From NCBI GenBank assembly GCA_964620955.1, contig CAZUKH010000002.1:78451-140611 (forward strand): 62,161 nt of DNA, in the 5' to 3' direction. The notes beneath the pieces were generated by a model. The model was not told the origin of the DNA. It made no database searches and saw nothing but the letters and a program-made list of their open reading frames with translations. Shown here piece by piece: positions 25,567 to 62,161 of this stretch. How positions within the stretch are numbered: the first letter of the stretch is position 1; each line of letters opens with the position of its first letter. Origin of the DNA: an uncultured Candidatus Saccharibacteria bacterium. GTDB lineage: Bacteria; Patescibacteriota; Dojkabacteria; J137. A program made the position numbers and the translations under genes.

Positions 25567-27000
25567 CTACTTCATCATTGAATTAACATCTTCAATGCTA
25601 TTTACAACTTTTATCATTTCAACCTTGTCAGCAGAGACTGACATACTGGATGAAATTGACTGCATTATTTGGGTCCACTGGCTCCCTACAAGAATAATTG
25701 ACTTGTCTTTCCATTGATAAGTATCTGCCATAGACCACAAAGTTGTTATTGTTGCAAGGGTATCTAGTTTTTGATCAAAAAGTATTATAAAAGTTTTTGC
25801 ACTCTTTAATAGGTACTCTAATCTATCAAGATATTTGGAAAATGACACTTGATGACTTGAAGAACTTGAATCAATAGCTTGCGTGCCTTCAGCAGATCCC
25901 AAATAAAGTACTGTTAAGTTATCATGACCATGTGGCATAACCTCTTGTAATGATTTTGATGCTTGGTCATTACCAAACACAGAAAGTTTTCCTCCCTTAT
26001 CTAAAATCTGCTTGGCAAAATCAGATATTCCCATGACATTTTGGGTGTCACCGCCAATTAAAGCGACCTGATCAAAAGATACCCCAGATCCAAGTGAAAC
26101 TTGGGGTTTTTCGATATTATCTGTAGCGGGCAAAGCTTGGGGAAGTTGTAAGTCTGGCATTTGAAAATTACCAAAATCAAATTGAGGGGCTGCTGTGGCA
26201 CTTGGTACAGCCTGGGGTTCTGAAACCTGCTGTTCAGGCTGATAAGATTCAACTGCAGGGGCAGATACTTGATTTTCGGTTTGTTGTTGTAATTGATTAT
26301 TATCAACCATGTTTGCGCCTTGGTTTACACCAATTTGTAAATCCCCTAAGCTGCTTGCAGGTGTTTCTGCCGACAGCATAGTTTGTCCAGCTTTTTCTTC
26401 TTGCTGCGCTACTGGCATTTGAGGTATTGGCGTTTGTAACTCCTGAGTTTGCTGAAAAGTCGTTGGCTCTTGTTGTGGCATATTTAAGTTTGGTAACAAC
26501 CCGCCTGCTGGAGCTTGTAACCCTGGCTGTTCAACTCCATATTGTTGTTGCAAAAGGTCTGGTGCAAGTAAAGAATCATTTTGTGGGTTTTGCGAGTTAG
26601 TATCTGGCACGGTTTGCACTGGCGGCTGGGGTTCTAAAGCAGCATTCGGATCTAAATCGGCCTTTTGATACTCTGCCATCATTGAGTTAGGGTCACGTGT
26701 TTGGAATTGTGCATCTTGAGTTCCAGCATTTTCCACTGGCATTGGTTGAGGTGTCTCAAGAGGCGGTAGCCCTATTGGAGGTTGGCCTCCCATTGGTGGT
26801 TGCCCACCCATTGGATAAATCGGAGAATCTACTGGAACCTGAGTATTAGCTGGTGCTGGCGGCGTAGGCAACATTGGCGAAGGCTGTTCCGGTTGAGAGG
26901 CCTGTGCAGCTGCAGGTTGTTGTTTTTTATCTTTTTTATCCTTTGATATAAAATCAAGAAGTCCCATATGGTTTTTATAAAAATTACAATATCTAAACAA
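25567..27000 (-). CDS. P/Q-rich low-complexity protein with C-terminal Rossmann-like (LOG/SLOG-like, degenerate) domain
   Basis: About 300 aa of P/Q-rich sequence, then VALIGGDTQN...LSVFGND...LTVLYLGSAEG...IILVGSQW. The likely start is MGLLDFISKDKK at 26967. Confidence 0.5.
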   Translation of the reverse strand: MFRYCNFYKNHMGLLDFISKDKKDKKQQPAAAQASQPEQPSPMLPTPPAPANTQVPVDSPIYPMGGQPPMGGQPPIGLPPLETPQPMPVENAGTQDAQFQTRDPNSMMAEYQKADLDPNAALEPQPPVQTVPDTNSQNPQNDSLLAPDLLQQQYGVEQPGLQAPAGGLLPNLNMPQQEPTTFQQTQELQTPIPQMPVAQQEEKAGQTMLSAETPASSLGDLQIGVNQGANMVDNNQLQQQTENQVSAPAVESYQPEQQVSEPQAVPSATAAPQFDFGNFQMPDLQLPQALPATDNIEKPQVSLGSGVSFDQVALIGGDTQNVMGISDFAKQILDKGGKLSVFGNDQASKSLQEVMPHGHDNLTVLYLGSAEGTQAIDSSSSSHQVSFSKYLDRLEYLLKSAKTFIILFDQKLDTLATITTLWSMADTYQWKDKSIILVGSQWTQIMQSISSSMSVSADKVEMIKVVNSIEDVNSMMK

Positions 27001-27074
27001 CAGAATACAGCAATTAAAATACTGCTACAAGTTTTTTGATTTGTATAATATAATCATTAATTACCACAACAATT

Positions 27075-28385
27075 ATGGAAAGAACTCTTGCTTTAGAAAC
27101 ACTAAAAAAAGTTGGAGAAAAAGTTGTACTCAAAGGCTGGGTTGCTAATCAAAGGGTCATGGGCAAAATGACCTTTGTGGATTTAAGAGACAGGTCAGGC
27201 GTTGTTCAATGCGTTGGGTTTGATACGATGAAAGATTTAACTAGTGAATCTGTAATTGAAATTGTTGGAATAGTTAAGAGCAGACCAGAAAAACAGGTGA
27301 ATGAGGAAAGCAATACAGGATCTGTTGAGATTGAGGTTGATGACTATAAAATACATAGCAAAGCAGAAGCACTCCCAATTCAAGTTAATGCCAAAGCCCA
27401 AAATGAAACTGAAATTGATGCAAGACTTGATTATAGGTGGATTGACTTGCGTAAACCTGAGAAAAATATGATTTTCGAGGTTTGGACGGAGTTAGAAAAA
27501 GCATTTAGAGAATACTGGACATCGAACAAATATATAGAAATTCATAGTCCAAAGCTTTTAGGTGCTCCAAGCGAGTCAGGTGCTGAGGTTTTTGAAGTTA
27601 AATACTTTGACAGAACAGCTTACCTTGCCCAATCTCCTCAATTTTATAAGCAGATGGCTATGGCATCAGGGTTTGAGCGTGTTTTCGAAGTCGGACCTGT
27701 TTTCAGAGCAGAAAATTCAAATACTATAAGGCATACAACTGAATTCACAGGCTATGATGCTGAGATTTCTTATATTGATTCCCACGCTGATGTAATGTCT
27801 GAACTTGAAAAGCTTATTGTAAAAGGTATTACGAGTGTAAAAGCAAACTGTTCGGAGATGATAAGTCAAACCATAGGTGTCAATATCGAGGTTCCGACGA
27901 TTCCATTTCCTGTGTTAACAATCTCAAAAGCAAAAGAGATCTTAGGTAAACTCGGCATTAAGAGCGAGAAGTCAGGTGATTTAAGCAGTGAGGAGGAAAA
28001 AGCTATTGGTGAATATGTATCCCGCGAACTGAGTCATGACTTTGTTTTTATAACTGAATATCCACATGAAGGCAGGGCCTTTTATCATATGCGACTTGAA
28101 ACAAATAATGAACTAACAAAGGGATTCGATTTACTTTATAAAGGTCTTGAGATAGTCACTGGCGCTCAAAGGGAACATAGATATGAAGTACTCGAAAAAC
28201 AAGCTCAAGAAAGAAAAATGAATCTTGATCTTATACAGTTCTATTTAGATTTTTTTAGATACGGCTGTCCTCCCCATGGTGGCTTTGGAATGGGGCCGAG
28301 CAGGCTGCTTATGAAGCTTTTAAATCTAGGAAGCATTAGAGAAACAATGTATTTGTTTAGAAATCCAAGAAGGTTAAATCCATAG
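27075..28385 (+). CDS. aspS: Aspartyl-tRNA synthetase, archaeal/eukaryal type (probably non-discriminating)
   Basis: OB-fold N terminus, class II motifs FRAENSNTIRHTTEFTGYDAE and GGFGMGPSRLLM, and a compact 436-aa length. Confidence 0.9.
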   Translation: MERTLALETLKKVGEKVVLKGWVANQRVMGKMTFVDLRDRSGVVQCVGFDTMKDLTSESVIEIVGIVKSRPEKQVNEESNTGSVEIEVDDYKIHSKAEALPIQVNAKAQNETEIDARLDYRWIDLRKPEKNMIFEVWTELEKAFREYWTSNKYIEIHSPKLLGAPSESGAEVFEVKYFDRTAYLAQSPQFYKQMAMASGFERVFEVGPVFRAENSNTIRHTTEFTGYDAEISYIDSHADVMSELEKLIVKGITSVKANCSEMISQTIGVNIEVPTIPFPVLTISKAKEILGKLGIKSEKSGDLSSEEEKAIGEYVSRELSHDFVFITEYPHEGRAFYHMRLETNNELTKGFDLLYKGLEIVTGAQREHRYEVLEKQAQERKMNLDLIQFYLDFFRYGCPPHGGFGMGPSRLLMKLLNLGSIRETMYLFRNPRRLNP

Positions 28386-48770: not shown

Positions 48771-50150
48771 TTAAGATTTTTTTGCTGCTCTTCCCATGTA
48801 TCTTATAAAACCAAAGATCTTTCTTTCAAACCAAGGTCGATCATGAAGCCCTGCAATTGACCACAAACAGCCTACATAACCATTAGGGTCATAACCATCC
48901 AGACTATATTTGTCATTAAGCTTAATTGCATAGTTTAATGCTGTAGTTGCATTGGGAGTCCATTCTAAAATCTTTTTAGCCCAGTACATTCGAAGGTAGC
49001 CATGCATTTTACCAGTTGAAACCATTTGTTGTTGTGCCAAGTTCCACTTTGGATCATGCGTTTTGGCTTTTTCAAACTGCGTATAAGTATAAATATAATC
49101 TCTTTTGTCTTTTTTATGTTTTTGTAAAGTTTTTTTGGCCCATTCTGGAGCTCCATCCAGAGAGTCGTATTGATTATTGTAATAACAAAAGTTATCTGAA
49201 AGTTCTTTTCTTACAATTATTTCTTCAATTAGAGCATTGACCGAATTATTTAAATCATCTTTACTTGGGCCGGATATGCCTGCTTCTAAAAGCATTTTTT
49301 GATACCTATTAAGCTCAAGCACAACTCTTAAAGAAGAAATCTGTCCAAAATGTAAATAAGGGCTTAAGTTTGTAAGAGCATCAATATCGGGATTATTTCT
49401 GTTTTTAAAGTAATTTAAGAGTTTGCCTTTTAAAAAATTAATTAAAGTAGTGTTTGCGTGTTGACTCCCAGATATTTGCATTGGCTCGTAATTATCAATA
49501 GTTTTAAGTTTCAATTTTGCTAATAATTTCTGCCAGTTATTTCTTTTTAAATCTAGATTATGATTTTGTGAGTTTATTTTTTGTGGTTCGTAAAGATAAT
49601 TTTGAATATGCTTGTTGAGTTTAGGCCTAATTGTTCTTGCAGCGTATTCTTGTTTGTTTGATGTAATCCAAACTGGAACAATATTGTGGGTATCTACCAT
49701 GAATACGGGAAAAGACGAGTCATTTGCAAAATCTAATTTAACTTTTATGGGACCTTTTAATGGTGAGAAGTCAAAATAAACTGCAACTGGACCGAACTCT
49801 TCCGCAGCACTTTTATATACCTTACTTGCTTTCCCCGATATTATGAAGAATGGAATATTTAGTAAATGCAACTGATTTTCTACTTCTTTTAAACCTTCAA
49901 TCATCCACTTAAACTGATTCATAGTTCTATTTTTAACAGAAGAATAAAGAGCAAAAATAACTAGTAATGGGACTTTAAGTCTTTCCGAATGAAGTTTTGC
50001 TGCAATTAGCGCATGATTATCGTTTACTCGTTGATCTCTAGACATGAAGTAAATAACGCACTTGCCATAAGTTGAATTTGCAGTATTAAGTTTTTTGATG
50101 CGAGATTTAAGGAGTTGAGTTTGGCTGATTGCTGTTTGTGGTACTTTCAT
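48771..50150 (-). CDS. phr: Class II CPD deoxyribodipyrimidine photolyase
   Basis: VIYFMSRDQRVNDNHALIAA, GKMHGYLRMYWAKKILEW, and NGYVGCLWSIAGLHDRPW. Confidence 0.8.
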   Translation of the reverse strand: MKVPQTAISQTQLLKSRIKKLNTANSTYGKCVIYFMSRDQRVNDNHALIAAKLHSERLKVPLLVIFALYSSVKNRTMNQFKWMIEGLKEVENQLHLLNIPFFIISGKASKVYKSAAEEFGPVAVYFDFSPLKGPIKVKLDFANDSSFPVFMVDTHNIVPVWITSNKQEYAARTIRPKLNKHIQNYLYEPQKINSQNHNLDLKRNNWQKLLAKLKLKTIDNYEPMQISGSQHANTTLINFLKGKLLNYFKNRNNPDIDALTNLSPYLHFGQISSLRVVLELNRYQKMLLEAGISGPSKDDLNNSVNALIEEIIVRKELSDNFCYYNNQYDSLDGAPEWAKKTLQKHKKDKRDYIYTYTQFEKAKTHDPKWNLAQQQMVSTGKMHGYLRMYWAKKILEWTPNATTALNYAIKLNDKYSLDGYDPNGYVGCLWSIAGLHDRPWFERKIFGFIRYMGRAAKKS

Positions 50151-52596
50151 TCAAGTTACTTAAGTTAGTAAAGAAAGTTTGCTTTTGCTGATTAGCGATT
50201 GTTTCTTGGTGGCCGGGGTCATTGGTGTTAAGGTTTTCTGCCTGTGCCAATGCAGGTTGACCTGTTGAGATTTCTTTATTTGGTTGTTCTGTTTTTTCAA
50301 TGGGTGTTGAATCGAATATATCAGGGTTTTGGTTTTGCCCTTCTTGCCCAAGAGTGTCACCTGCTTTCGCAATAACGAAGCTAAATGTACTTCCCTTGCC
50401 CACGCCTTCACTTGTTACTTCAAGTTTACTATCCATTGCCTGTAGCAAACCTTTAATAACATATAGCCCAATACCTGTACCACCTGGCCTTACAATTTTT
50501 CGGCCACCTATTTTGCCATCTGAATTTAGATGAGGGTTAATTCTATAAAACTTTTTACCCAAGTTGGCAATATTTTCTGGAGATATTCCTTCACCAGTAT
50601 CTATAACTGAAAATCTAACTTTATTTTCTTCTTCTGTTACTTTAATCAAAACACTGCCAGAGGGAGTATATTTTACAGCATTGCTGACAAGGTTATCGAG
50701 CACTTGTTGTATAGCCGTTTTGTCTGCTGCAACTTCTGTATTTGCATCGATACTAATTTCGGTTTTTAGCTCCAGTTTTTTCTTTTCAGCCATTGGACCA
50801 AATGCCTCGAGCGAATCATCAATCATATCCTGAATTTTTACTCTTTCAAGATTTATTTGCACCCTGTCATTTTCTAGCCTTGCTGACTGCAAAATTGTTT
50901 CGAGTAAATCTTTTTCACGCCTTATATTGTCTTTTGCCATTTTTAAGTACTTAGCCTGCTTTTCAGGGTCAAGGCTATTTTTTTCGGACAAATCGCTCAT
51001 CATTACTATTGCGTTTCGAGCTGTTCCCAATGGCGTTCGGAGCTCATGGCCAAGAATATCCATCATATCTCGCTCTTTTCTCAACTGTTCCGCAAGCTGA
51101 TCGTTTGCAACTTTAAGCTCTTTTGTTGCTTCATCAACTTTTGCCTGAAGGGTTGCATTAAACTCTTGGACTTCTTCATATAAAAATGCTCTTGCTAATG
51201 AGACTGCTGTAATATCTGCTAAAGACTTTATAAATGTAACTTCAGAACCTGAGTAGTAGCTATTACCTGCTTTTGATCCCACCAATATAGCACCAAAAAT
51301 ATCGTTAGATTCTTGCTTAAAAGGTACTATTACTTTAATACCCAGCTCTTGCATTATTACTATTACTTCTTTAACTATGTAGTCTAATGTTTTGAATTCA
51401 GGAGGTATTTCGTTTTCTAGCTGGTCGAGGTTGAAAATTTTTATATCTAAAGGGTGCAGCATTTCCAGAAGTTTTTTAAGTTTATCCATTTGATCGGATG
51501 AGTAGCCGTTTTTCTGAAAGATTTTTGGGTTACCTTTTGAGTCCTGTACTAAAACATAGCTAAAAGATGGCCTCACTGTTTTAGAAATTAATTCGGACGT
51601 TTTTTCGGACACAAGGTTATAGTCAAGTGTTGTGCTTATGGCCTGATTAAATCTCGCTATTTCGGCATTTGGGTCGTAGTTGGGGAATATAATTCTTGAG
51701 TCTACCTGTTCTCGAATATATGTGTTTAGCGAGTTGTAAGCGATAACAAACACTACAGCTACAAACGTACCGAACAGTATACTGCCTGCGCTAAAAAAGT
51801 CTCCAAAAACTGTTTGATCGAATATTAATACAGCGTAAAAGACAAAAAAAGCAACAGAAGCTGTTACGAGGTAGTATATGATTCTACCGATAATGAGACG
51901 AATGTCGAGGAATTGATAGCGGAAGATGGCGAAGAAAATGGTAAAAGCAAAAATTAAAACAGAGAACATTCCAAGGTTTTGTATTAGAGTATATGCTTCA
52001 ATGCTGTACAGCCCTGCCGTAAACAGAATTGGATTGACAATATTTGTAATTACACCCCAAAAAACTGATACAGAAAGACCTAAGAACAATAATTTCCTTT
52101 GAAATTTTTCTTTTCCTTTTGAATTACGATAACCATCTACAAGTCTATAAAGAGCAATGAGCAAATAGGTCAAGAAGTGAAAAATAAAAAGTCCATAACC
52201 CGGACCGTATATAGTCTTAAGGTTGCCATCAATTAAAGTTTCCTCCACTACAACAAAAGCTGAGAATTGGTTTAGTAATAAAATTATACTCATTTCAAGC
52301 CATATAAACACCTCCAAACCACTAGTTGACTTTGCTTTAGGGAAGTTTCTAACGAAAATAAATAAAGAAGGGGACAGAACTATTCCAAAAGAGAAGTTCA
52401 ATCTCCCCATAAAAAGAAGCGTGTCTGGATCCACTATTTGGTAAAGCATATATAGCGTAAATATCCAACCTAAAAGTGATAACAAGGTTAAGAGAAACAA
52501 GAAGGCAGGCTTATCTCTTCGGCTAAAGAGAATTAGAACCGACAACGTTATTACGACCGAGAAGGTTGCTATATAAAGGAATTGAGTAATTAACAT
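50107..52596 (-). CDS. Sensor histidine kinase (multi-TM sensor, GAF-like linker, HisKA, HATPase_c)
   Basis: H-box LGHELRTPLGTARN, N-box LDNLVSNAVKYT, and G-boxes VIDTGEGISPE and GGTGIGLYVIKG. About 7 N-terminal TM helices. No adjacent response regulator. Confidence 0.85.
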   Translation of the reverse strand: MLITQFLYIATFSVVITLSVLILFSRRDKPAFLFLLTLLSLLGWIFTLYMLYQIVDPDTLLFMGRLNFSFGIVLSPSLFIFVRNFPKAKSTSGLEVFIWLEMSIILLLNQFSAFVVVEETLIDGNLKTIYGPGYGLFIFHFLTYLLIALYRLVDGYRNSKGKEKFQRKLLFLGLSVSVFWGVITNIVNPILFTAGLYSIEAYTLIQNLGMFSVLIFAFTIFFAIFRYQFLDIRLIIGRIIYYLVTASVAFFVFYAVLIFDQTVFGDFFSAGSILFGTFVAVVFVIAYNSLNTYIREQVDSRIIFPNYDPNAEIARFNQAISTTLDYNLVSEKTSELISKTVRPSFSYVLVQDSKGNPKIFQKNGYSSDQMDKLKKLLEMLHPLDIKIFNLDQLENEIPPEFKTLDYIVKEVIVIMQELGIKVIVPFKQESNDIFGAILVGSKAGNSYYSGSEVTFIKSLADITAVSLARAFLYEEVQEFNATLQAKVDEATKELKVANDQLAEQLRKERDMMDILGHELRTPLGTARNAIVMMSDLSEKNSLDPEKQAKYLKMAKDNIRREKDLLETILQSARLENDRVQINLERVKIQDMIDDSLEAFGPMAEKKKLELKTEISIDANTEVAADKTAIQQVLDNLVSNAVKYTPSGSVLIKVTEEENKVRFSVIDTGEGISPENIANLGKKFYRINPHLNSDGKIGGRKIVRPGGTGIGLYVIKGLLQAMDSKLEVTSEGVGKGSTFSFVIAKAGDTLGQEGQNQNPDIFDSTPIEKTEQPNKEISTGQPALAQAENLNTNDPGHQETIANQQKQTFFTNLSNLNESTTNSNQPNSTP

Positions 52597-52670: not shown

Positions 52671-53645
52671 TCAGCCCAATACTCCTGAATTTAAAATAAG
52701 AGAGATAGTGTCCGGCTCAATTTCAGCATGGTAGTAAACTATTTGTGCATAATCTGAATTAGGAACGAAAGGAAGTAAACCTAATATTCCATTTAGCTTA
52801 CCCTTAGCCAATTTATCTATGACTCCTCCTGTAGTTGTCCGAAAAAAGAGTTTTATCGGTTTTGGGTGTCCGAAATTATCATATGACTGGGAAGTAATGA
52901 CTTTAACAAGCCCAGAAATCAGACTCCTAGACAGACCTTGAGATTGATACTTAGGATGAACAAGTATCTCATCAACATAAAATACATGAGCAGTTCTATT
53001 GAACCAAGGCTGGGATTGGATTTCACCAGCAACAATTCCCCACTTTGTCTGATCTAGAGGGTAATTTGCCTTACCGATCCTCTTTAATAACAATTCGAAA
53101 TTTGTTTGGGTACCCCAAGACAAGCCTACAAACTCACGTCTAGAATCAATAGCCTTTTCAACTGTACGTCCAATCAAGAATGGTATATTATCTTCCGATA
53201 GTCGCAGCTCTTTTGACATCCTGTTAGCTAGTCCAACTGGATCATGGATAAGTCTAAACATAAGCTGACCATCAGGAGATAAGTCGAGAAATTCTTCTAT
53301 ACTAATTCGGTCTGCGGGATTAATGGGTGATCCATATGCAATATATGCACCCTCAAGCCACCTAATATCGTTTCCGTATACTGAAATATATAGACCGATC
53401 ATGCTTACAAGTTCCCTTGGGCTTATTTGACCAATAATTGAACCTGTTAAATTCAGAACCTCAAATCTGTCACCGTCTTCTGGGCTTAATTCAGAAAACC
53501 TTCTTAGACTTTGAACGATCCCAGGCTCAACAAGGGTACCAAAATTATTCATGTAGGGTTGATCATTATCGTTTTCAATCATAGTCATGTGTAATATTTT
53601 ACTTGCCAATTGAATGCTGTGTGTAGATGATGGTGTTTCAATCAT
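52671..53645 (-). CDS. Hypothetical protein with C-terminal GNAT-like acyl-CoA N-acyltransferase motif
   Basis: VFYVDEILVHPKYQSQGLSRSLISGLVKV resembles GNAT motif A (V.P.yqg.G....L). It shares a 4-nt ATGA overlap with the upstream gene. Confidence 0.45.
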   Translation of the reverse strand: MIETPSSTHSIQLASKILHMTMIENDNDQPYMNNFGTLVEPGIVQSLRRFSELSPEDGDRFEVLNLTGSIIGQISPRELVSMIGLYISVYGNDIRWLEGAYIAYGSPINPADRISIEEFLDLSPDGQLMFRLIHDPVGLANRMSKELRLSEDNIPFLIGRTVEKAIDSRREFVGLSWGTQTNFELLLKRIGKANYPLDQTKWGIVAGEIQSQPWFNRTAHVFYVDEILVHPKYQSQGLSRSLISGLVKVITSQSYDNFGHPKPIKLFFRTTTGGVIDKLAKGKLNGILGLLPFVPNSDYAQIVYYHAEIEPDTISLILNSGVLG

Positions 53646-54460
53646 TGCTTTCCATCAACATTAAACAACATACATTTTACACCACCTCCCGACTTTAGAA
53701 ATTCACTAACATCCACCTCTTTTACAACAATCCCCAATTCATTCATTCGTCCTTTTAAGTCTTCTGAAATCCCCATATTCACCACAAACTGATCCTTAAT
53801 CACGAAACCATTACATGCAAAGTTCAGAGCATCATCATAAGAAACGGGAATAATTGTAATATTGGTTCTTTCTTTTAGTTCGTCTAGGTCTGACTCTCTA
53901 AATGCGAGTGGACAAGCTATAGCAAGATCTTTTCTCAATAGGCAGAATGCCACATCTAAATGATAAAAAAACGGATCTATAAGCTCAATAAAAATAATAT
54001 TATCAACAGAGAGATTTATAATTTCAGCAATTCTATAATATGAATCTTTTCTGGCTCTCAAACCATATGAAGCTATCAAATTCTCTCCTATCTTAAGTGA
54101 GCAAGCTTCACCCTCCCAATACAAACCACCATCTAGGCTATAAGTTTCAAAACCATTGTAACGCATTCTTTCTTCAAAAAACCTCGATTCTGGTCTCCTT
54201 TCTTTGTCTTTAAAGTTACTTGAAATAAATATGTTCCCATCTACCCAGCCAGCATTTGCGGCGAAAACCATATCCTTTAATCCTTGTATACCTTTCATGA
54301 CATCAATTTTAATCCCCATATCAGTAAGGAGTGTATGTAAGTTTTTCCACTGAGTTCTTGCCTTAGCCTTATTTACTTTTGTATTAGGGTTCATCCAAGG
54401 ATTTATCGAGTAGTCAACATCAAAACTTTCAGGTGTCACCATTAAAAGCTTTTTGCTCAT
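53642..54460 (-). CDS. Amidinotransferase / DDAH / arginine-deiminase-fold enzyme (guanidino-group-modifying superfamily)
   Basis: LLMVTPESFDVDYSINPWMNP at the N terminus, FYHLDVAF (catalytic His region), and C-terminal GGGVKCM (catalytic Cys). Confidence 0.65.
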   Translation of the reverse strand: MSKKLLMVTPESFDVDYSINPWMNPNTKVNKAKARTQWKNLHTLLTDMGIKIDVMKGIQGLKDMVFAANAGWVDGNIFISSNFKDKERRPESRFFEERMRYNGFETYSLDGGLYWEGEACSLKIGENLIASYGLRARKDSYYRIAEIINLSVDNIIFIELIDPFFYHLDVAFCLLRKDLAIACPLAFRESDLDELKERTNITIIPVSYDDALNFACNGFVIKDQFVVNMGISEDLKGRMNELGIVVKEVDVSEFLKSGGGVKCMLFNVDGKQ

Positions 54461-55800
54461 TTTAAAAAAATAACTTCGGTCTTTTTTGGATAAGATTTCA
54501 AAACATCATCAGGGCTGAACCCGTTGTTTTTCCAAATAACTTCAACTACTTTACCTAGCTTCTTTAAACTATTTGATAACGAATATGCACTTTGAAGATT
54601 ATTTGAAAATATTACGTAATCGACTTCGTAGTCTGCACGTATAATCATGTTTTTATTAATTGTATCGAGAGATTGTTGTTTTAATGCGGCAATTATTCTT
54701 TCTAAACTATATGCATACCCAGTTGCAGGTACCAGTGATTTGTTCAATTTGGAATTTACCACTCTGTTTATTAGAAGGTCATATCTCCCTCCACCTGCTA
54801 CCTCAGCAAGGATTCCATTCTTAGTCTGGATATCAATTTGAAAAGTACATTTATTGTAGTAGTCTTGACTTCTTACCACCCCAAAATCAAGTTTCGCTTG
54901 AACACCTAGCTCTCTAAAAAATTTAACTAATTCTTGTGCTTCCTTTAAAACTTCTTTTCCCAAATATCTTACTAATAACTCAACATCCTTTAATGAAGGA
55001 TATGACCGGTAGAGTAATTTACACATCTCAATGTGAGTTTCATTTTTTAGTATAGAACTAGTGTAGGAATCAAGTTTACTAACCGCCCTTAAAAGCTGAC
55101 TTTTCAGACCTTTGGCCCTTGCTGATGCTACATTATCCAGAAGTTCTTTAATAATATTAGCTTCGTTTACGGAAATGCCAATATTTTTGATAACTTCATT
55201 AAAAATCCTTACATCGCTTACACGAAGAATTAATTGCTTAGTATCGAATCCAAGCGAATTGAGGCTGTTAATAGCCATATCTATAACCTCAATGTCAGCG
55301 TTAACGCTTGACTTTCCAAAAAACTCTACACCCACCTGCACAAACTCTCTGAATTTAGTTTCCGAGACCTTGCTAAGAAGCTCGTTCCTGAAACAGTTTG
55401 GTGTGTAAAAGATTCTTAAGGGTCTGGCATTAAGCTCAGCGGCAGCCTTAGTAATGTCTTTATATCTTGAGGCGAGCCATCTACAGACGGATGTAGTTCC
55501 TTCCGGTATAAGGAAACAATGTATCTCCTCGGCGGGGAGAGACTCGTAATCTTTTTGATAACCTTTTAAGTGTAACGATATTAAGCTTTTCGGATGCCAA
55601 CCCGGCCAGGGATGAACACCTACAATCTCCGAGGAAAAGAATGATTGTCGCTCAATAGATGGCAAAGTTAACTTCTTGTAATTTGAAAGATAAAAATAAT
55701 GACTTAGTAAATTTTGAATATAGTCCCTTAAACTTGCGTCACCATTATAGATGTCTCGAAAACCTAATGGTGGTATAAATTTATTCTTTTGACCTAGCAT
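54457..55800 (-). CDS. hisS: Histidyl-tRNA synthetase family protein (HisS-like class II aaRS; housekeeping versus paralog role unresolved)
   Basis: PLGFRD, LIPEGTTSVCRW, motif 2 CFRNE..(insert)..KFREFVQVGVEFFG, VRSQDYYNKCTFQI, GGGRYDLLI, VPATGYAYSLERI, plus a C-terminal anticodon-binding-like domain. Confidence 0.7.
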   Translation of the reverse strand: MLGQKNKFIPPLGFRDIYNGDASLRDYIQNLLSHYFYLSNYKKLTLPSIERQSFFSSEIVGVHPWPGWHPKSLISLHLKGYQKDYESLPAEEIHCFLIPEGTTSVCRWLASRYKDITKAAAELNARPLRIFYTPNCFRNELLSKVSETKFREFVQVGVEFFGKSSVNADIEVIDMAINSLNSLGFDTKQLILRVSDVRIFNEVIKNIGISVNEANIIKELLDNVASARAKGLKSQLLRAVSKLDSYTSSILKNETHIEMCKLLYRSYPSLKDVELLVRYLGKEVLKEAQELVKFFRELGVQAKLDFGVVRSQDYYNKCTFQIDIQTKNGILAEVAGGGRYDLLINRVVNSKLNKSLVPATGYAYSLERIIAALKQQSLDTINKNMIIRADYEVDYVIFSNNLQSAYSLSNSLKKLGKVVEVIWKNNGFSPDDVLKSYPKKTEVIFLK

Positions 55801-55919
55801 AAAGGGGTTAAATTTTGTGAATAAATTTTAGCATTGATTTTGGTAAGTGTCAATTTCTGCTGACAAAAACTGATTGATCTACACATTCTATTAAGCAATT
55901 ATTAAATGCCCTGTCATAA

Positions 55920-56378
55920 TTAATGGGCTCCCATGAGCCTAAGTTTGCAAATCAGAGTATCAACCCCATTAACAGTGTCGATCGTACCTTGATCCTTAGC
56001 ATTTATTACAAGTCGATAAAACTTCGAGCCTGTTATTCCAGCACATTCAGGTAAATAAGTATTACTTATCTTAGAATAAGCCAGTACCAATAAAGGAAAT
56101 ATCGCTAACCTTGAGTATATTTCTATTGCCTCAATACAAGCTTTAAGTCTAACCGGGCTTAGTCCTCCAGTTGTGGAATAAGAATTCAATGTCTCCGTAA
56201 GAATTATAATTCCCGAGATTACGATCGGTAAAATACAAATGATCGAAGTTACTGTGGCGACGTCATTCAGTGCCTCAAGCCTAATATATCTCGCTATTTT
56301 TTGCTGGTAGTCAAATTCGTTCCCCTCCAACTGGTCGGTAGGTTTTCCTTGACAATAGCAATCTTCAACATTCGACAT
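55920..56378 (-). CDS. Hypothetical membrane protein (152 aa)
   Basis: ORF with 2-3 hydrophobic helices, divergent from the XRE genes. Confidence 0.5.
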   Translation of the reverse strand: MSNVEDCYCQGKPTDQLEGNEFDYQQKIARYIRLEALNDVATVTSIICILPIVISGIIILTETLNSYSTTGGLSPVRLKACIEAIEIYSRLAIFPLLVLAYSKISNTYLPECAGITGSKFYRLVINAKDQGTIDTVNGVDTLICKLRLMGAH

Positions 56379-56433
56379 GTTTTAAACCATTTGAATGTAT
56401 GTTAACATAAAAATGTGTTAGCAACACAATAAA

Positions 56434-57219
56434 ATGAGTCATCTTGGCAATAGAATATATTTCTTCCGAAAGCGAGCGGGTCTAAGTCAAATGAAGTTAG
56501 AACTAGAGTCAGGTGTAGCCTTAGGTGGGTTAAGCCGAATTGAGAATGGTGAAATCAACCCAAATAAAGAAACGATTAGAAATATAGCGGAGGCCTTATC
56601 GCTTACACCTAGAGAGTATAATTACCTTGTTGGAAGTTTCTCTAGACCTGCTTCAACCGAGGAAAGGGAAAAGGCTGTAAAAGAACTAGAAAATACTTTT
56701 GAGGACGAACGCATATATGCATATTTATTTGATGAAACACAGACTTTACTTTACTTCTCAAAAGGAATACAGAAGCTGATTCTACGAGTAGTGCAAAAAG
56801 ATTACCCTCAGCTACGCTTAGAGGACTATATAGGTAAAACCTTGTACGAGGTTTTACTTACCCCCTCTTTCGGTATATATTCGATGCTTTCACAAGACCA
56901 AAACGATTTCCTTGAATTACTAAAATCACTTCTAATCAGATTCTACATTGAAACTAGTTTTATGTTTGACAACCCCCAGGTACAAAAAACCCTGGAGATT
57001 GTAAAATCACACCCTATTGCCAGCCAGGCCTGGAAAGAAGTATTAGCCGAAAAGCCAAGCATTTACAATAACGAATCAACTACTTTTTATATGCACTTTG
57101 GTCCATTTAAAGCAAAAATGGAATACAAAATAGAAAAAATGCTTTCCAACGACCGCTTTGAAGTAATAATCTACAAGCCAAAAAATATCTTCTTAAAGAT
57201 TATTAATATGTTTGGATAA
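56434..57219 (+). CDS. XRE-family HTH regulator with about 190-aa C-terminal sensor-like domain
   Basis: IYFFRKRAGLSQMKLELESGVALGGLSRIENGEINPNKETIRNIAEAL is an HTH_3 motif. Confidence 0.75.
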   Translation: MSHLGNRIYFFRKRAGLSQMKLELESGVALGGLSRIENGEINPNKETIRNIAEALSLTPREYNYLVGSFSRPASTEEREKAVKELENTFEDERIYAYLFDETQTLLYFSKGIQKLILRVVQKDYPQLRLEDYIGKTLYEVLLTPSFGIYSMLSQDQNDFLELLKSLLIRFYIETSFMFDNPQVQKTLEIVKSHPIASQAWKEVLAEKPSIYNNESTTFYMHFGPFKAKMEYKIEKMLSNDRFEVIIYKPKNIFLKIINMFG

Positions 57220-57275
57220 CCCCCCTACCCACCAACTTCGCAAAATGGTAAAATTACTCATTCATATAAACCATC

Positions 57276-58064
57276 GTGGCATCTACACTTGGTACTAGGC
57301 TTAAATATTTTAGAAAAAGAGCAGGTTTAAGCCAGTTTCAATTGGAAATTGACACTGTATCTTCTCCTGGCTCTGTAAGTAGAATTGAAAGCGGTGAGAC
57401 TAACCCAAACAAAGAAACGTTGACTAATCTGGCAGATGGGCTCAAACTTAACCCCAAAGAGAGAAGCTACCTTTTTGGTAACTTCGCAAGACAGGCATCG
57501 CGAGAAGAGATTGAAGCGGCAAAAGCAGAAGTTGCCAATGAATTCAGACGAACTGATTTTTATGGGTACCTTGTTGATGAAACTCACGTTTTATTAGATG
57601 CATCAGCAGGTATGGAGAAATTATTACACCCCTATGCTTTAAAAAACTCTCCCTCTGTTGATAAGTCAAAAGTAATTGGTAAAACTATATATGAGCTTGT
57701 AACTGATCCGCAATATGGAATAGTTCAACTAATAAATAGAAATGAAGATGAGTATTACAACTTTTTAAAAGAGCAAGTTTTAATTTTCTTGCGTGAGTCT
57801 AGTTTTATGCTTGAATATGAAGGTATAAAAAGAAGTCTTGATGCAATAAAGTCGAACCCACTAGCCTTAAAAGCATGGGAAGAAATTGATAAGGAAAAGC
57901 CAAGTATTTACAACCCCAACTTTACTTCGTTTAATATGTACTTAGGTAACTTTAAGGTAAGAATGGAATACAAATCGGAAAAACTACTTTCTAATGACAG
58001 ATTTGAAGTAATTATCTACAAGCCAAAAAATATCTTCTTAAAGATTATTAATATGTTTGGATAA
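57276..58064 (+). CDS. XRE-family HTH regulator, tandem paralog (GTG start)
   Basis: LKYFRKRAGLSQFQLEIDTVSSPGSVSRIESGETNPNKETLTNLADGL. Its last 51 nt are identical to the 3' end of the upstream paralog. Confidence 0.75.
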   Translation: MASTLGTRLKYFRKRAGLSQFQLEIDTVSSPGSVSRIESGETNPNKETLTNLADGLKLNPKERSYLFGNFARQASREEIEAAKAEVANEFRRTDFYGYLVDETHVLLDASAGMEKLLHPYALKNSPSVDKSKVIGKTIYELVTDPQYGIVQLINRNEDEYYNFLKEQVLIFLRESSFMLEYEGIKRSLDAIKSNPLALKAWEEIDKEKPSIYNPNFTSFNMYLGNFKVRMEYKSEKLLSNDRFEVIIYKPKNIFLKIINMFG

Positions 58065-58186: not shown

Positions 58187-58528
58187 TTATTGCTTTGTAT
58201 ATTGCAAACTTACTAAGTCAAGAATATAGTATTGATTTCTTTCATACTCATCGACAAGATAACTAGTCTTAATTTTGTAGCTATTATCAGAAAGTATCTC
58301 AACTGAATTAAATCTTGGATAAATGGAAAATTCTGTTTGATCTGAGAGGGAATTAGAAGGGATTACCTTGAGAAACTGTTTAGACCTTACATCGAATGCC
58401 CATATACCACCAAACTCTTCATACTCAGCCTTAATGGGTGCAATGCAGGCATCGTAGTTTGGGTTAGCATGCCCGTCATAACTCGAGCAGTTGCCATAAC
58501 TACCCATTGTTATGGTGAAGAATAGCAA
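58187..58528 (-). CDS. Hypothetical protein. The frame is actually open upstream to 58708, so this is probably the 3' part of a frameshifted gene.
   Basis: The track ORF starts at TTG 58528. The same frame stays open to 58708 with no ATG, GTG or TTG, and overlaps the end of 58669-59091. Confidence 0.45.
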   Translation of the reverse strand: MLFFTITMGSYGNCSSYDGHANPNYDACIAPIKAEYEEFGGIWAFDVRSKQFLKVIPSNSLSDQTEFSIYPRFNSVEILSDNSYKIKTSYLVDEYERNQYYILDLVSLQYTKQ

Positions 58529-58668
58529 GGATCTACTTTTAGGTATTAAATATGCGTTGTCTGGTGCAAAATCTCCAGAAAGTACTGAAAGTTTTACCTC
58601 TTTACCAAAGTCGAATTTTGCAATAGTTTTATACTGAGCATCTTGTATTATAAGTCCGCGAAGATAAC

Positions 58669-59091
58669 CTAGCGGATTTTCTCCCCATTTATTGTGATTA
58701 ATGAATAGTTAATTGAGTACTGGTCCTGCACTGCATTCAATTTTTGAGTATTCTTAGTAGTTAAATCTGCAACTTTAATCTTCTCTTTAGATAGTTGAGT
58801 TTCTAAATCCTCGACTTGAGCCTCTAACTCTTCTATTGACAATCTAAAAGTATTGATTTTTTGCTCGGCCTCCCCAAGTAAAGCACCAAAAAGAAATACG
58901 CTAATTACTAACAAACCAGTGACAAATTTACGAAACCATGGTTTTTTAATAACTTTAAATTTTCTGTAAAAAAATCCAATAACTTTGTCGAGTAATCTAA
59001 AACCTTTTAGAATTAAACCTTTTGCTTCTTTACTTTCTTCTTTGGTCTTGGTCATTGTAATTAATTTACGTAAAATATTTTTTGTCTGCAA
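58669..59091 (-). CDS. Membrane-anchored coiled-coil protein, possible 5' part of a frameshifted gene
   Basis: 140-aa ORF with a TM helix (LLVISVFLFGALLG) and then a coiled coil. Confidence 0.5.
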   Translation of the reverse strand: MQTKNILRKLITMTKTKEESKEAKGLILKGFRLLDKVIGFFYRKFKVIKKPWFRKFVTGLLVISVFLFGALLGEAEQKINTFRLSIEELEAQVEDLETQLSKEKIKVADLTTKNTQKLNAVQDQYSINYSLITINGEKIR

Positions 59092-59213
59092 ACATTATTT
59101 ATAAAACACTGCATTAAATGTCCATGGTATTTATACTACGTTTTTAATTAAAAAACATTGTATTACAATACAAATCTTTGGGAATTAATTTTTAACTATA
59201 TATACCAAAATAT

Positions 59214-60008
59214 TCAATTAGGTTTTAAAGCTTTTTCTTCTTCTGCCTGTTTTTTTATTTCTTCTTTTAGTCTTATGCTTTCTTTGTATACTTCTTTTAA
59301 CTCTTCCCAGTATGTTCCTTCTTTTTTCTTTGCTTCTACCATTTTTTCTGCTAATTCATACTCTGGATAGTTCTTTTTTGCTTCTCTTAATGCTTCTTCA
59401 AATATTGGCTTTTCTTTTTTTAATATCTCTTCTTTTTCTTCTTCTGTTAATGGCTTTTCTGGAGCTTTTGTTTGTATGTGTATGTCATCCGGATATTTAT
59501 CCCAGTAGTCTTTTGCTACTATGTAAAACAACCAGAAATATTTAAAATATATTTTCCTGCTTACTTTCCATTCTGGCATTGCTACTGTATTTGTTTGCAC
59601 TACTTCTTCTCCTTTTACTACTATGTCATATTCTTCGGGAGACATAAGTCGCCTAGGTTCTTTAGTTGTAGCATCTGCATAAACGTTCCTAATTGTATAA
59701 GATCTGGCTATTGGGGTATATTTCTCACGTATTTTTTCACCTTTTTCCCACCTTACCCAGGTTTCAACTTCACCTGTGCCTACGCTTGCTGTGTTGGGTG
59801 TTTCAATAAAGATTCCTTTTGACCTTAGCATAACAGTCTCTGGTCCTTCAGTAGTTGCTGCTATTGGGAACATAACTTTAGAACCAAATTTTTCATATAT
59901 TTCTTTCTCAAGAGTACTTCTATCTTTCACATGACCGTATTTTACCTGATGCATATTCCCATCAGTGAACACATTATTAAAACTCTTTATTGTTAGTAGA
60001 TCTTTCAT
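59214..60008 (-). CDS. Hypothetical protein (264 aa) with K/E-rich C-terminal tail
   Basis: Clean ORF in a co-directional cluster with no recognised motif. Confidence 0.55.
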   Translation of the reverse strand: MKDLLTIKSFNNVFTDGNMHQVKYGHVKDRSTLEKEIYEKFGSKVMFPIAATTEGPETVMLRSKGIFIETPNTASVGTGEVETWVRWEKGEKIREKYTPIARSYTIRNVYADATTKEPRRLMSPEEYDIVVKGEEVVQTNTVAMPEWKVSRKIYFKYFWLFYIVAKDYWDKYPDDIHIQTKAPEKPLTEEEKEEILKKEKPIFEEALREAKKNYPEYELAEKMVEAKKKEGTYWEELKEVYKESIRLKEEIKKQAEEEKALKPN

Positions 60009-60014
60009 GTAATT

Positions 60015-60194
60015 TTACGGCTCAAACCACCAACTTGAATTTGGCATATTGTTCAAAATAGTATCGTAGCCACGCACTCTGTACTCATTACCATTTATAG
60101 TGTACCTACTTTTTGAAATTATCCCGATCTTTTGTCCTGTCTGTGGGTGGAAGACTTCGTCAAAATTATTTAACTCAAAATCTTTTTTTAACAT
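60015..60194 (-). CDS. Small hypothetical protein (59 aa), missing from the ORF track
   Basis: ATG at 60194-60192 to TAA at 60017-60015 (MLKKDFELNNFDEVFHPQTGQKIGIISKSRYTINGNEYRVRGYDTILNNMPNSSWWFEP). It ends 6 nt before the next gene start. Confidence 0.5.
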   Translation of the reverse strand: MLKKDFELNNFDEVFHPQTGQKIGIISKSRYTINGNEYRVRGYDTILNNMPNSSWWFEP

Positions 60195-60255
60195 AAACCC
60201 TGCTTCTAAAAATTGTTCTGCTGTTGTACTGGAAAAGGCTTTGATAAACCCACAC

Positions 60256-60942
60256 TCATTTTATATAAGGGATTTCCTCAAAGTTTAACCTCACTTCTGC
60301 TACCATGGCCCTCAATACGATTCCATTTGGAGCTTTATAGGATATCATTTTCGCATTATTGAAAAGACTTACCTGCTCCATTTCTTCGTATTCATAAATG
60401 CTAATCGATGCATTACTAGTTATTGTGAGTTCGTTGGGATCTAATCTCATATGAAGAATATCTTCCTTTATGGTAGTTATAAAAACTTCTTGATTAACGC
60501 TAGTTATCTTGAAATCTGCTACATTTTCTATGATTAAAACTTCTGATTGGTGGGACTTGTTAATTAGGTTATATTTAATCGCGTATAGGTTTCCTGGCTT
60601 TACAATCGATCCCTCATTATTGCAACCTTTACCAATAAGGATTAGGCTATCCTCTGTCCTGAAAATGCCAAAATGCAGCGGATCAATCTGTGGAGATAAG
60701 TATACCCCATCGAGCAAAACATTGAGCACTTCATCTCTACATGGCGAAACATACCGGGGTAGGCCGTTAGTGACATTTGATTTTTCTAGGTAATCGTTTT
60801 TAACCACAGACTCATACACATTAACATTCGATTGAAGAACAATGTCGTGTTGTGGTTGTCTCAAGATAAAGAAAGTTACGGATAATAAAACAAGTATTAT
60901 CCCTAAATAAATAAATTTCTTGACATTTCTTATGCTATTCAT
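60256..60942 (-). CDS. Hypothetical membrane-anchored protein (228 aa)
   Basis: N-terminal TM helix (FIYLGIILVLLSVTFFIL) and a 4-nt overlap with the upstream gene. Confidence 0.55.
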   Translation of the reverse strand: MNSIRNVKKFIYLGIILVLLSVTFFILRQPQHDIVLQSNVNVYESVVKNDYLEKSNVTNGLPRYVSPCRDEVLNVLLDGVYLSPQIDPLHFGIFRTEDSLILIGKGCNNEGSIVKPGNLYAIKYNLINKSHQSEVLIIENVADFKITSVNQEVFITTIKEDILHMRLDPNELTITSNASISIYEYEEMEQVSLFNNAKMISYKAPNGIVLRAMVAEVRLNFEEIPYIK

Positions 60943-62161
60943 TTTAAGCTTTTATAGTAGTGAAATACATTATCTCCATAGGTACAAACATTTCCTCTCC
61001 AATCTTGGCAATTTGTACTTTTGACTAAGCGACCACCCACATTATCATAGTAATACGTACCATTATATCTTTGAAAAGCTTCTCGCATTAGCTCGTCTTC
61101 GCTGTAATTTCCTGCTCCAATTATCCCATTCAAGTGATTACGTGCATAAGATAGTTTACTATTAAAACAAGCTTGCCCACCATCAATATTGCTCTTCCAG
61201 GACCAAATCTCTTTATACGTTGGTAAGCCATTGCATTCAGTCAGTTGTGTTAGTCCAAATCCTCCGTCAAAGGATACAACTGGATCTAACAGTCCGTTAC
61301 TAGCCGCACCAAAGTGTTTGCCATCGCGTGCTTCATACTTATATATTGCTTTTATTTCTTTAGGCATGTATGACTCTTTTTGTTCTAAGGATGGTTCAGT
61401 ACCCCAAATTTGAAAGCCAGCTTCAGTACTCAAGTTTTTATCTTCCAAAATTAAAGCTGCCGTAACTTTCCCATTTGCACCACCACCATAGTTATTACCT
61501 AATGTATTGGCGTCTAGATGCCAAATACTCGACAGGTTTTGTCCATTTAACTCCCAATAGTCACCTGTAGCTTTCCCACTTCTCTGCCTATGAATACCAG
61601 TATTAATAAAATGTTGGCCTTTCCATGTTCCATCCCAGTATTCGATCTCAACATGCCAATTAAATTTATCTTTTGTAAATTCTGATAAAGCTTTAATTTC
61701 GTTTGGACTTGTTACACCTTCGAATCTTAATACGAAATCCATTTGAGGCATATTTGCATCATTGTCCAAATAATAGATATATTCATTATTGGTTCCATTA
61801 GGATTGAGTTTAATACCGGTTAAGTTTTTTAGTGCATTATTTAAATCTTCTTCGGTGGGATTCGTATCTACGCATCTACTTCCATCCCAGGCTTGACCGT
61901 CATTGCATCGTGGGGTAGCGGTTTCGCTACATTGATTTCTCAGATCATCCCAAACTTTGGGTGGCTGGCAATTTGCAGGTAGTTCACCAGGGCAGTGAAT
62001 AAATTGAAGTGGTATATCGGTATAAATAACTGAAAATCTATAATAATTAATATTTGTTAGTTCGAATCTTTGTGTATAGAAAGTTCCAAGCCAATTTGAA
62101 CTTTCTTCTCCTGTTGGCATACCAAATTTTTGTTCTGCTCCATTATTAAAGTAATAACTCC
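60939..62161 (-). CDS. Cys-rich secreted protein with possible lytic-transglycosylase (SLT)-like C-terminal domain. The 5' end lies outside the window.
   Basis: The frame stays open upstream of Met 62120 to the window edge. YEARDGKHFGAASNGLLDPVVSFDGGFGLTQLT and FQRYNG resemble the SLT E...S..G..GLMQ...AYNAG pattern. Many paired Cys residues. Confidence 0.4.
   Translation of the reverse strand, partial: SYYFNNGAEQKFGMPTGEESSNWLGTFYTQRFELTNINYYRFSVIYTDIPLQFIHCPGELPANCQPPKVWDDLRNQCSETATPRCNDGQAWDGSRCVDTNPTEEDLNNALKNLTGIKLNPNGTNNEYIYYLDNDANMPQMDFVLRFEGVTSPNEIKALSEFTKDKFNWHVEIEYWDGTWKGQHFINTGIHRQRSGKATGDYWELNGQNLSSIWHLDANTLGNNYGGGANGKVTAALILEDKNLSTEAGFQIWGTEPSLEQKESYMPKEIKAIYKYEARDGKHFGAASNGLLDPVVSFDGGFGLTQLTECNGLPTYKEIWSWKSNIDGGQACFNSKLSYARNHLNGIIGAGNYSEDELMREAFQRYNGTYYYDNVGGRLVKSTNCQDWRGNVCTYGDNVFHYYKSLK

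Follow-up and report, generated by a model that had tools for sequence, protein, structure and literature searches.

What does a gene resembling histidyl-tRNA synthetase (HisRS) do at the head of a compact cluster in a member of the Patescibacteria, where it is followed by a guanidino-group-modifying enzyme, an acetyltransferase-like protein and a sensor histidine kinase? The question is raised by a stretch of 62,161 nucleotides from an uncultured bacterium of the Dojkabacteria lineage (assembly GCA_964620955.1, contig CAZUKH010000002.1, positions 78,451 to 140,611), hereafter called the window, which comes from hot-spring metagenome runs and has a G+C content of ~34%. An initial annotation of this DNA had suggested that three of the genes form a pathway for modification of an amino acid or guanidino compound. 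We find that four same-strand, tightly packed genes form a putative operon, encoding a HisRS paralog, an enzyme resembling ArgZ, a protein of the GNAT fold (GCN5-related N-acetyltransferase), and a kinase with seven transmembrane segments (7TM) and a GAF domain. The reading that we favour, tentatively and somewhat short of an even chance, is that this is a ligand-controlled operon of Patescibacteria for an amino-acid-derived small molecule, related to histidine or arginine, and that gene 1 is not housekeeping hisS. The four genes lie as follows.

54457-55800, minus strand: gene 1, the HisRS paralog, an open reading frame (ORF) of 447 aa
53642-54460, minus strand: gene 2, putative ArgZ/AgrE-type guanidino-group-modifying enzyme, 272 aa, coupled to the paralog
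52671-53645, minus strand: gene 3, predicted divergent single-domain GNAT-fold protein, 324 aa, coupled to gene 2
50107-52596, minus strand: gene 4, sensor histidine kinase, 829 aa

Genes 1 and 2 overlap by an ATGA stop/start at 54457-54460, where the DNA reads AAAATGAGC, and genes 2 and 3 overlap in the same manner at 53642-53645, where it reads CAATGATTG. The chain of three minus-strand genes described in the initial annotation is therefore present in the DNA. The kinase gene begins 74 nt downstream of gene 3 on the same strand, and no convincing terminator was found between the genes. The three-gene unit is real, but it had been drawn too short, overlooking the conserved fourth gene at 50107-52596.

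Gene 1 was correctly assigned to the class II enzymes of the HisRS family (Pfam tRNA-synt_His, E = 2e-30). It scored 157.7 bits against the NCBIfam hisS model TIGR00442 and 131.6 bits against the hisZ model TIGR00443, below the respective cut-offs of 286.75 and 271.65. When 5.8 billion proteins were searched, ~33 clusters of relatives were recovered, 30-41% identical and ~430-450 aa long, followed by a sharp break, with ordinary HisRS coming next at ~25% identity. The Pfam anticodon-binding domain HGTP_anticodon (PF03129) was absent from the window protein and from every close family member, including all of these clusters. In a neighbour-joining tree the family formed one separate clade, outside both bacterial-type and archaeal-type HisRS. 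The curated libraries Pfam and NCBIfam hold no model for this family, and none for gene 3.

Alignment of 26 family members showed that E100, T102, R138, E140, Q155, E159, R310, Y314, Y315 and G336-Y340 are invariant. The motifs kept are TXE (LIPEGT), motif 2 (FRNE...K.REF.Q.G.E), HisA (VRSQ-D/E-YY) and motif 3 (GGGRYD), and the window protein reads FRNE-LLSKVSETKF-REF, VRSQDYY and GGGRYD. The histidine-pocket motifs that had been noted as intact in the window are thus invariant in the family, and the paralog keeps every residue that in HisRS binds histidine or ATP or catalyses adenylation. The insertion previously seen inside motif 2 was also borne out, the loop being three residues longer than in canonical HisRS in the alignment; a basic pair within it, K149/R151, is conserved across the family. 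A second family-specific feature is the invariant VGxxPWPxWHPKS segment, present in the window protein as VGVHPWPGWHPKS at residues 61-72, which stands in for the canonical TD.V.KEMY segment and is followed by an insertion of ~11 aa. The helical insertion domain is present. At the C-terminus, ~60 aa could be aligned with the anticodon-binding domain, of which they cover the first two thirds (hhalign probability 89%); AlphaFold2 (AF2) modelled them as a small beta-alpha-beta-alpha-beta unit.

The AF2 model of the paralog had a predicted local distance difference test score (pLDDT) of 88 and a predicted template modelling score (pTM) of 0.90. Foldseek matched it over its full length to HisRS and HisZ structures with E-values of ~1e-22 to 1e-24; the top entry was 3od1 (HisZ/HisRS, E 2e-24), with a negligible lead. 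Judged from these comparisons, gene 1 is a predicted catalytically intact, non-orthodox HisRS paralog, neither an orthodox HisRS nor HisZ. In the NCBI annotation pipeline PGAP, the orthologue from Dojkabacteria is mislabelled as 'ATP phosphoribosyltransferase regulatory subunit' (HisZ), and the family member P0002 is not named hisS. Some members carry the label 'histidyl-tRNA synthetase' in the Joint Genome Institute (JGI) annotation.

For gene 2, the placement in the guanidino-group-modifying superfamily held and could be made more precise. The protein is ~45% identical, over the whole 265-aa catalytic domain, to Synechocystis ArgZ (Sll1336, PDB 6jv0/6juy; E 2e-46, residues 4-268), and it also matches the arginine dihydrolase domain of Anabaena AgrE. 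Ten orthologues share the invariant motifs INPWMN, F.ANAG, EG, FYHLD and GGG..C, which in the window read INPWM, FAANAG, FYHLD and GGGVKC. FAANAG, FYHLD and GGGVKC correspond to Asn71, His168/Asp170 and Cys264, invariant in the ten orthologues and kept as in ArgZ/AgrE (PDB 6juy, 6lrf), the naming of these ArgZ residues following the PDB variant sequences. Unlike ArgZ, gene 2 stands alone, without the C-terminal ornithine cyclodeaminase half. It scored 187.4 bits against the NCBIfam model Arg_dihydro (NF052232, cut-off 450) and 191.6 bits against dimethylargininase of the Mycobacterium tuberculosis type (DDAH, NF045659, cut-off 300). It thus scores equally with the two models, and below cut-off for both. 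The fold and catalytic machinery are settled, and gene 2 is classed as an arginine-dihydrolase-like member of the superfamily, with a putative substrate class only.

Gene 3 matched only GNAT families in Pfam, all below cut-off (E 0.01-0.08; Acetyltransf_1, E = 0.011), and its sequence matches in the PDB were N-acetyltransferases with E-values of 0.07-1.6. Word-index searches, with the single sequence or with an 8-sequence profile, returned only the protein itself and one positional orthologue, and an exhaustive HMMER search of 1.84 billion representative proteins found ~5 relatives. The positional orthologues at seven loci are homologous, with 24-32% identity, and share the motifs LY..VFG..PW.EGA, RIG.ANY, YIDEI..P..QG.G and FFRT. 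An AF2 model made with six sequences was of moderate quality (pLDDT 63, pTM 0.61). Its N-terminal ~58 aa are predicted to be disordered, and the order of strands and helices, at that pLDDT of 63, fits one GNAT domain (beta1-alpha1-alpha2-beta2-4-alpha3-beta5-alpha4-beta6) with insertions. Foldseek matches of the model were weak (E 0.014-0.3, template modelling score 0.25-0.5) and nearly all were GNATs, among them NAT10, the GNAT toxins AtaT and KacT, SpeG and Naa10. The motif-A-like stretch that had first suggested a GNAT is present, if weak; the motif-A loop for the acyl-CoA pyrophosphate (Q/R-x-x-G-x-G/A) is found in the window protein, as YQSQGLS, and also in the related loci L094 and L097, and is degenerate in L003 and L095. 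As modelled, gene 3 is a fast-evolving, divergent protein with a single GNAT fold and weak scores. The further suggestion of a Fem-type transferase or amino acid:carrier-protein ligase gained no specific support: Fem, MprF and L/F-transferase were absent from the Pfam and NCBIfam matches (E <= 0.1) and from the top 50 Foldseek matches of gene 3, and there is no carrier protein gene.

The initial annotation had left conservation of the neighbourhood across Patescibacteria to be checked. The order paralog, ArgZ-like enzyme, GNAT-like protein and 7TM kinase recurs in ten independent loci of the candidate phyla radiation (CPR), which we call A-type: the window, L001 (Dojkabacteria, GCA_016927655.1), L003/L011 (Dojkabacteria), L005-7 (including the 644-kb contig Ga0376499_000001, with L006, that recurs in dozens of samples), L012 (Saccharibacteria), L090, L094, L095/96, L097 and L098. 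In the window and in seven of the nine other loci with gene coordinates, the paralog gene shares 4 nt with the ArgZ-like gene, and the arrangement is therefore beyond chance. Between pairs of A-type loci the paralog is 38-42% identical, the ArgZ-like enzyme 40-52% and the kinase 31-41%; as the gene order has been kept at such low identities, the synteny is old. L001 is an exception in that its ~300-aa gene is placed upstream of the paralog, and this gene shows only marginal similarity. A metagenome scan with family-specific patterns yielded four loci only, among them one further A-type locus and two of the more distant B-type described below. No tRNA gene was found in or beside any A-type locus, and hisG was absent from the Pfam lists of every locus. 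The gene is non-orthodox and its synteny conserved, which largely supports the earlier view of an accessory pathway as opposed to plain housekeeping.

Two further observations were made around these loci. A trans-polyprenyl synthase gene lies a few kb from the paralog at L003:14857-15951, L011, L096:6446-7540 and L013:1692-2750, and in ~7 B-type loci, with none in the window; this proximity could be fortuitous, or it could mark a functional tie to isoprenoid chemistry. In L097 (11782-14329), immediately beyond the downstream end of the A-type block, efp lies one gene away from a gene for a 352-aa LysRS-like protein (tRNA-synt_2), a second aminoacyl-tRNA synthetase (aaRS) paralog in that neighbourhood. 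The location of efp near a LysRS-like gene is the usual PoxA/EpmA arrangement.

The kinase is the fourth conserved member of the block, and the unit extends past 52671. It has a 7TM N-terminus (HisKA_7TM), a GAF-like cytoplasmic domain, a HisKA domain (1e-8) with the H-box HELRTP at residue 517, and a HATPase_c domain (5e-23). A profile of the middle region matched GAF domains in the PDB with E-values of 1e-9 to 1e-3. Every A-type locus has an orthologue of it, 33-41% identical over the full length, immediately after the enzyme genes. No response regulator turned up in the window. A receiver-domain protein (response regulator) is encoded directly upstream of the block in L097 and L098, in place of the XRE-family regulators described below. 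The C-terminus of the window kinase (50107-50350) is a low-complexity tail of ~80 aa, rich in Q, N, T, S and P, that is missing from the orthologues, and the final 44 nt of the gene overlap the start of a downstream photolyase-family ORF (48771-50150).

A scan of GTDB species genomes revealed more distant members of the paralog family, with 30-35% identity, in loci designated B-type. The hosts include, within the CPR, Saccharibacteria (among them a complete 781-kb TM7i genome) and Azambacteria; among archaea, Woesearchaeota (a complete 919-kb chromosome) and others; and, elsewhere, Pyrinomonadaceae, a metagenome-assembled genome (MAG) of Planctomycetota and many actinomycetes (Nocardiopsis, Frankia, Kitasatospora, Sphaerisporangium and a Streptomyces plasmid). 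The family is rare, with a patchy distribution over CPR, DPANN archaea, actinomycetes, Planctomycetota and others. B-type paralogs adjoin a second HisRS gene of archaeal/eukaryal type (LRYDLT, QCDIDI), whose product scores 280-303 bits on the hisS model. Since the paralog stands beside a true HisRS even in complete minimal genomes, its role is not redundant with that of HisRS. In L015, L027, L031 and L035 the paralog is immediately preceded by a tRNA-His(GTG) gene that encodes G-1 and C73, and in L013 such a gene is nearby. The family thus has a persistent link to histidine and tRNA-His. It is also repeatedly accompanied by small-molecule tailoring enzymes: recurring neighbours are C-N hydrolases (creatininase family, Amidohydro_2, M20), methyltransferases and radical S-adenosylmethionine (SAM) enzymes, and further ones are GNAT proteins, APH/kinase-like proteins, a polyprenyl-synthase-like gene and XRE-TPR regulators.

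Three arrangements among these distant loci were recorded separately. The paralog lies between tRNA-His(GTG) and an archaeal-type HisRS gene at L015:7786-10585, L027:7829-11112, L031:2639-6276, L035:7892-11000 and L022:7956-10432, in DPANN archaea, Azambacteria and Saccharibacteria, with two complete genomes of <1 Mb. This tRNA-His/paralog/hisS module looks like a conserved unit of its own, and in three archaeal loci (L027, L029 and L035) the paralog is directly followed by a creatininase-family gene. Actinomycete loci (L016:4001-12568, L018, L019, L020, L032, L014 and L023) hold the paralog and an additional HisRS of archaeal type that co-evolves with it, in the company of a polyprenyl-synthase-like gene, a kinase-like protein with faint similarity to LxmK, an APH-family kinase, an FkbM-type methyltransferase and an XRE-TPR regulator. 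Their layout resembles a biosynthetic gene cluster, in which the extra HisRS could be a self-resistance copy. In the Planctomycetota MAG (L008:6402-15142) the paralog is fused to a SAM methyltransferase in a protein of 709 aa, a full HisRS follows the fusion, and two radical SAM enzymes, a GNAT and a transporter of the major facilitator superfamily flank it.

Upstream of gene 1 in the window are the following features.

55825-55853, minus strand: promoter-like site, TTGACA, a 17-nt spacer and TG-TAAAAT, with 11/12 matches, 25 nt upstream of the paralog start
55920-56378, minus strand: 152-aa ORF with hydrophobic segments, between the operon and the regulators, with no family match
56434-57219, plus strand: predicted MmyB-like regulator 1, 261 aa, XRE helix-turn-helix (HTH) and PAS-like ligand-binding domain
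57276-58064, plus strand: predicted MmyB-like regulator 2, 262 aa, GTG start, tandem paralog of regulator 1

The promoter-like site had the top score within 9 kb and is correctly placed for gene 1; it is a consensus match only, and the total of such sites was not above that in shuffled controls. Searches of the window with Rfam were negative for T-boxes, riboswitches and other known leader RNAs. The two XRE genes form a tandem pair that points away from the operon. Their HTH domains matched Pfam HTH_3 (regulator 1, 9e-10) and HTH_31 (regulator 2, 7e-10), and the proteins are 50% identical to each other. A sensor-like domain had been suspected in both. The C-terminal domain of ~190 aa gave a family profile that matched PDB 3pxp (MltR) at residues 95-220 (E 1e-5), and four of the ten XRE family members matched PF17765 (MLTR_LBD, best E 6e-7); the window proteins alone are below Pfam significance for PF17765, matching it through the family profile only. 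Both are therefore predicted to be MmyB-like ligand-binding regulators. As in MltR (3pxp, PF17765), an HTH domain is followed by a PAS-like ligand-binding domain in ~260-290 aa; unlike known MmyB-like proteins, which come from actinomycetes and Chloroflexi, those of the window are from Patescibacteria and very divergent. MltR, the solved family member, binds a fatty acid, and the family has been tied to antibiotic and secondary-metabolite clusters (PMC3406030).

Between one and three MmyB-like XRE genes flank the block in seven loci. Orthologues of regulator 1 adjoin the operon in L001, L003, L011, L012, L094 and L095, and tandem pairs are found also in L001 and L012. Such regulators usually accompany the block. 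The small membrane protein counted with them does not: the 152-aa ORF had no family match, resembled none of the ORFs that occupy this position in related loci and, because it is not conserved there, is probably outside the system. The last 171 nt of the two XRE genes (57049-57219 and 57894-58064) are 83% identical in DNA, and the final ~25 residues of the proteins are identical (LSNDRFEVIIYKPKNIFLKIINMFG), compared with only 50% identity for the whole proteins. The shared 3′ ends suggest gene conversion or strong constraint on the C-terminal peptide.

Elsewhere in the window, the G+C content peaks at 0.406 (vs ~0.34) at positions 26001-28000, with positive GC skew; the peak overlaps ORFs at 25567-27000 (minus) and 27075-28385 (plus), and no rRNA or other Rfam family was found in it. 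Beyond the regulators, at 58187-62120, a run of minus-strand ORFs of 113-393 aa had zero Pfam matches except one weak coiled-coil match, and these are typical CPR 'dark' proteins. The PADLOC defence models matched only the HTH domains of the two XRE regulators, and none matched the enzymes, the kinase or the 152-aa ORF. A tblastn search against plasmids gave zero matches. A defence system, a toxin-antitoxin system and a phage origin were considered and dropped, as there was no supporting match.

In the pathway that we tentatively favour, the paralog would bind L-histidine and ATP and form histidyl-adenylate; this step is proposed because all HisRS residues for it are invariant in the family. 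The histidyl group would then be passed to an acceptor outside the normal translation pool. Such a non-standard acceptor is suggested because the rim of the active site is reshaped, with the PWPxWHPKS segment and the longer motif-2 loop, and because the anticodon domain is a stub. The ArgZ-like enzyme would hydrolyse a guanidino group, in a reaction of the arginine-to-ornithine type, either supplying a free amine acceptor or trimming the product, and the GNAT-fold protein would cap an amino group through acyl transfer. Small-molecule sensor domains are present at the locus in the kinase (GAF) and in the XRE regulators (MmyB-like ligand-binding domain); through these, the product or substrate would be sensed inside the cell and the operon controlled. 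The product, the acceptor, the reaction order and any role of tRNA are what we infer throughout.

There is a parallel in mycothiol synthesis, where MshB exposes an amine, MshC ligates an ATP-activated amino acid and MshD caps the alpha-amine. By analogy, the locus would supply a hydrolase, an aaRS-paralog ligase and a GNAT in the same logical order, a likeness of logic only; MshC has been counted among aaRS-like ligases (PMC9437257). MshC is a class I, CysRS-derived enzyme, MshB an LmbE-type deacetylase and MshD a tandem GNAT, all with zero sequence kinship to the proteins described here, and mycothiol genes are not linked to a sensor kinase.

Several findings weigh against this pathway. The basic residues of the motif-2 loop and the anticodon stub fit an enzyme that still uses tRNA-His, and tRNA-His genes are directly upstream of the paralog in four distant loci and nearby in L013. 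The ArgZ-like enzyme could have nothing to do with the paralog and simply break down free arginine. The assignment of gene 3 to the GNATs is weak (pLDDT 63, Foldseek E >= 0.014), and its acetyl-CoA loop is not conserved in all orthologues. Finally, no other hisS was seen for the source genome, of which only the 62-kb window was covered.

The first of these points lead to the alternative that survives best, specialised charging of tRNA-His, which we consider unlikely though far from negligible. Here the paralog would secure His-tRNA-His whenever the operon is expressed, or feed His-tRNA to a GNAT-fold transferase, and the ArgZ-like enzyme would carry out ordinary arginine catabolism under shared control. 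The paralog has its fold, insertion domain, motifs 1-3 and HisA/HisB residues in common with canonical HisRS; no catalytic residue has been lost, the K149/R151 pair is conserved and the anticodon-binding stub is retained. The upstream tRNA-His(GTG) genes with G-1 and C73 are as expected for such an enzyme, but this adjacency may merely reflect the neighbouring housekeeping hisS, and the A-type loci have no tRNA gene in or beside the block. Among the weak Foldseek matches of gene 3 are AtaT and KacT, GNAT toxins with aminoacyl-tRNA as their target; on the other hand gene 3 has no match to Fem, MprF or L/F-transferase, and a single GNAT domain where Fem and MprF have a tandem. There is a precedent in the extra hisS of lactobacillal histidine-decarboxylase clusters, where an aaRS gene likewise lies inside an amino-acid-metabolism cluster (PMC5313534), but that hisS encodes a full orthodox HisRS, unlike the paralog. 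The paralog itself lies far under the hisS cut-off and differs from canonical HisRS in its separate clade, the PWPxWHPKS segment with an 11-aa insertion, three extra residues in the motif-2 loop, the loss of most of the anticodon domain (~60 aa remain) and the lack of a T-box or other known leader RNA.

Alternatively, the paralog could be a sensor of the HisZ or GCN2 kind, which binds histidine, ATP or uncharged tRNA-His and allosterically controls the ArgZ-like enzyme, the kinase or both. It would then make no product, and would link the amino-acid status of the cell to signalling. We regard this as improbable. Both known non-translational derivatives of HisRS are regulators, HisZ (PMC9437257) and the GCN2 domain (PMC11363354). 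The kinase is always co-encoded in the A-type block, and the start/stop overlap suggests that the paralog and the ArgZ-like enzyme are made together in stoichiometric amounts. The GCN2 HisRS-like domain, however, has lost its catalytic residues. HisZ has likewise lost adenylation and partners HisG (PMC9437257). The paralog resembles HisZ in deriving from the HisRS catalytic core without a full anticodon-binding domain, and 3od1 (HisZ/HisRS) was its top Foldseek entry, by a negligible margin. Unlike HisZ, it has invariant catalytic and histidine-pocket residues: the motif-2 Arg, the motif-3 Arg, R310 and the histidine pocket are unchanged in 26 divergent members, which argues for chemistry. At the locus it is accompanied by an ArgZ-like enzyme, a GNAT-fold protein and a kinase, there is no hisG in any locus, and distant family members occur without the kinase or the ArgZ-like gene. 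HisZ-like behaviour, one of the precedents cited initially, is therefore unlikely.

A further possibility, to which we give decidedly little credence, is that the paralog and the 7TM-GAF kinase make up a signalling device of these ultra-small symbiotic bacteria, based on aminoacyl-adenylate chemistry. It might be a bacterial counterpart of GCN2 that reads histidine or tRNA-His charging and relays it to a kinase, or a signal synthase and receptor pair, in which the three enzymes would make an autoinducer derived from histidine or ornithine and possibly acylated, to be sensed by the kinase and the MmyB-like regulators. As in GCN2, a HisRS-derived module would be associated with a protein kinase; unlike in GCN2, each has its own gene, the kinase is of the bacterial histidine kinase type and the HisRS module keeps its catalytic residues. 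If true, this would be the first quorum- or host-sensing chemistry for Patescibacteria.

Ordinary housekeeping, with gene 1 the divergent sole HisRS of a reduced genome and its neighbours unrelated, is very unlikely. In its favour, a second hisS is absent from the 62-kb window, divergence is common among CPR proteins, the JGI label of some family members is 'histidyl-tRNA synthetase', and a reduced anticodon domain might be tolerated by an enzyme whose tRNA identity is read mainly through G-1/C73. Against it, the window is only part of a ~141-kb contig and a fraction of the genome, the family is rare (~33 clusters in 5.8 billion proteins) and patchy, a true HisRS co-occurs in complete small genomes, four-gene synteny is kept across proteins only 33-46% identical, and PGAP does not name P0002 hisS.

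We return to the favoured reading, a ligand-controlled operon for an amino-acid-derived small molecule. To our knowledge, the only HisRS-derived lineages outside translation are HisZ and the GCN2 sensor domain, both of which are non-catalytic; the paralog family would be the third, with its chemistry retained. In the literature we found no description of such bacterial HisRS paralogs or of the operon, only work on GCN2, HisZ and duplicate hisS genes. The recruitment of aaRS paralogs to non-translational chemistry is a known theme, and the new element is the operon architecture with a sensor kinase. As the enzymes are small and soluble, recombinant testing should be direct. The paralog has been kept in some of the smallest genomes (CPR and DPANN) as well as in actinomycete clusters, which implies a non-redundant function. 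Patescibacteria have almost no biosynthesis and are host-dependent. A conserved, regulated module of this kind in these organisms is thus a candidate for a role in host interaction, nutrient sensing or envelope modification.

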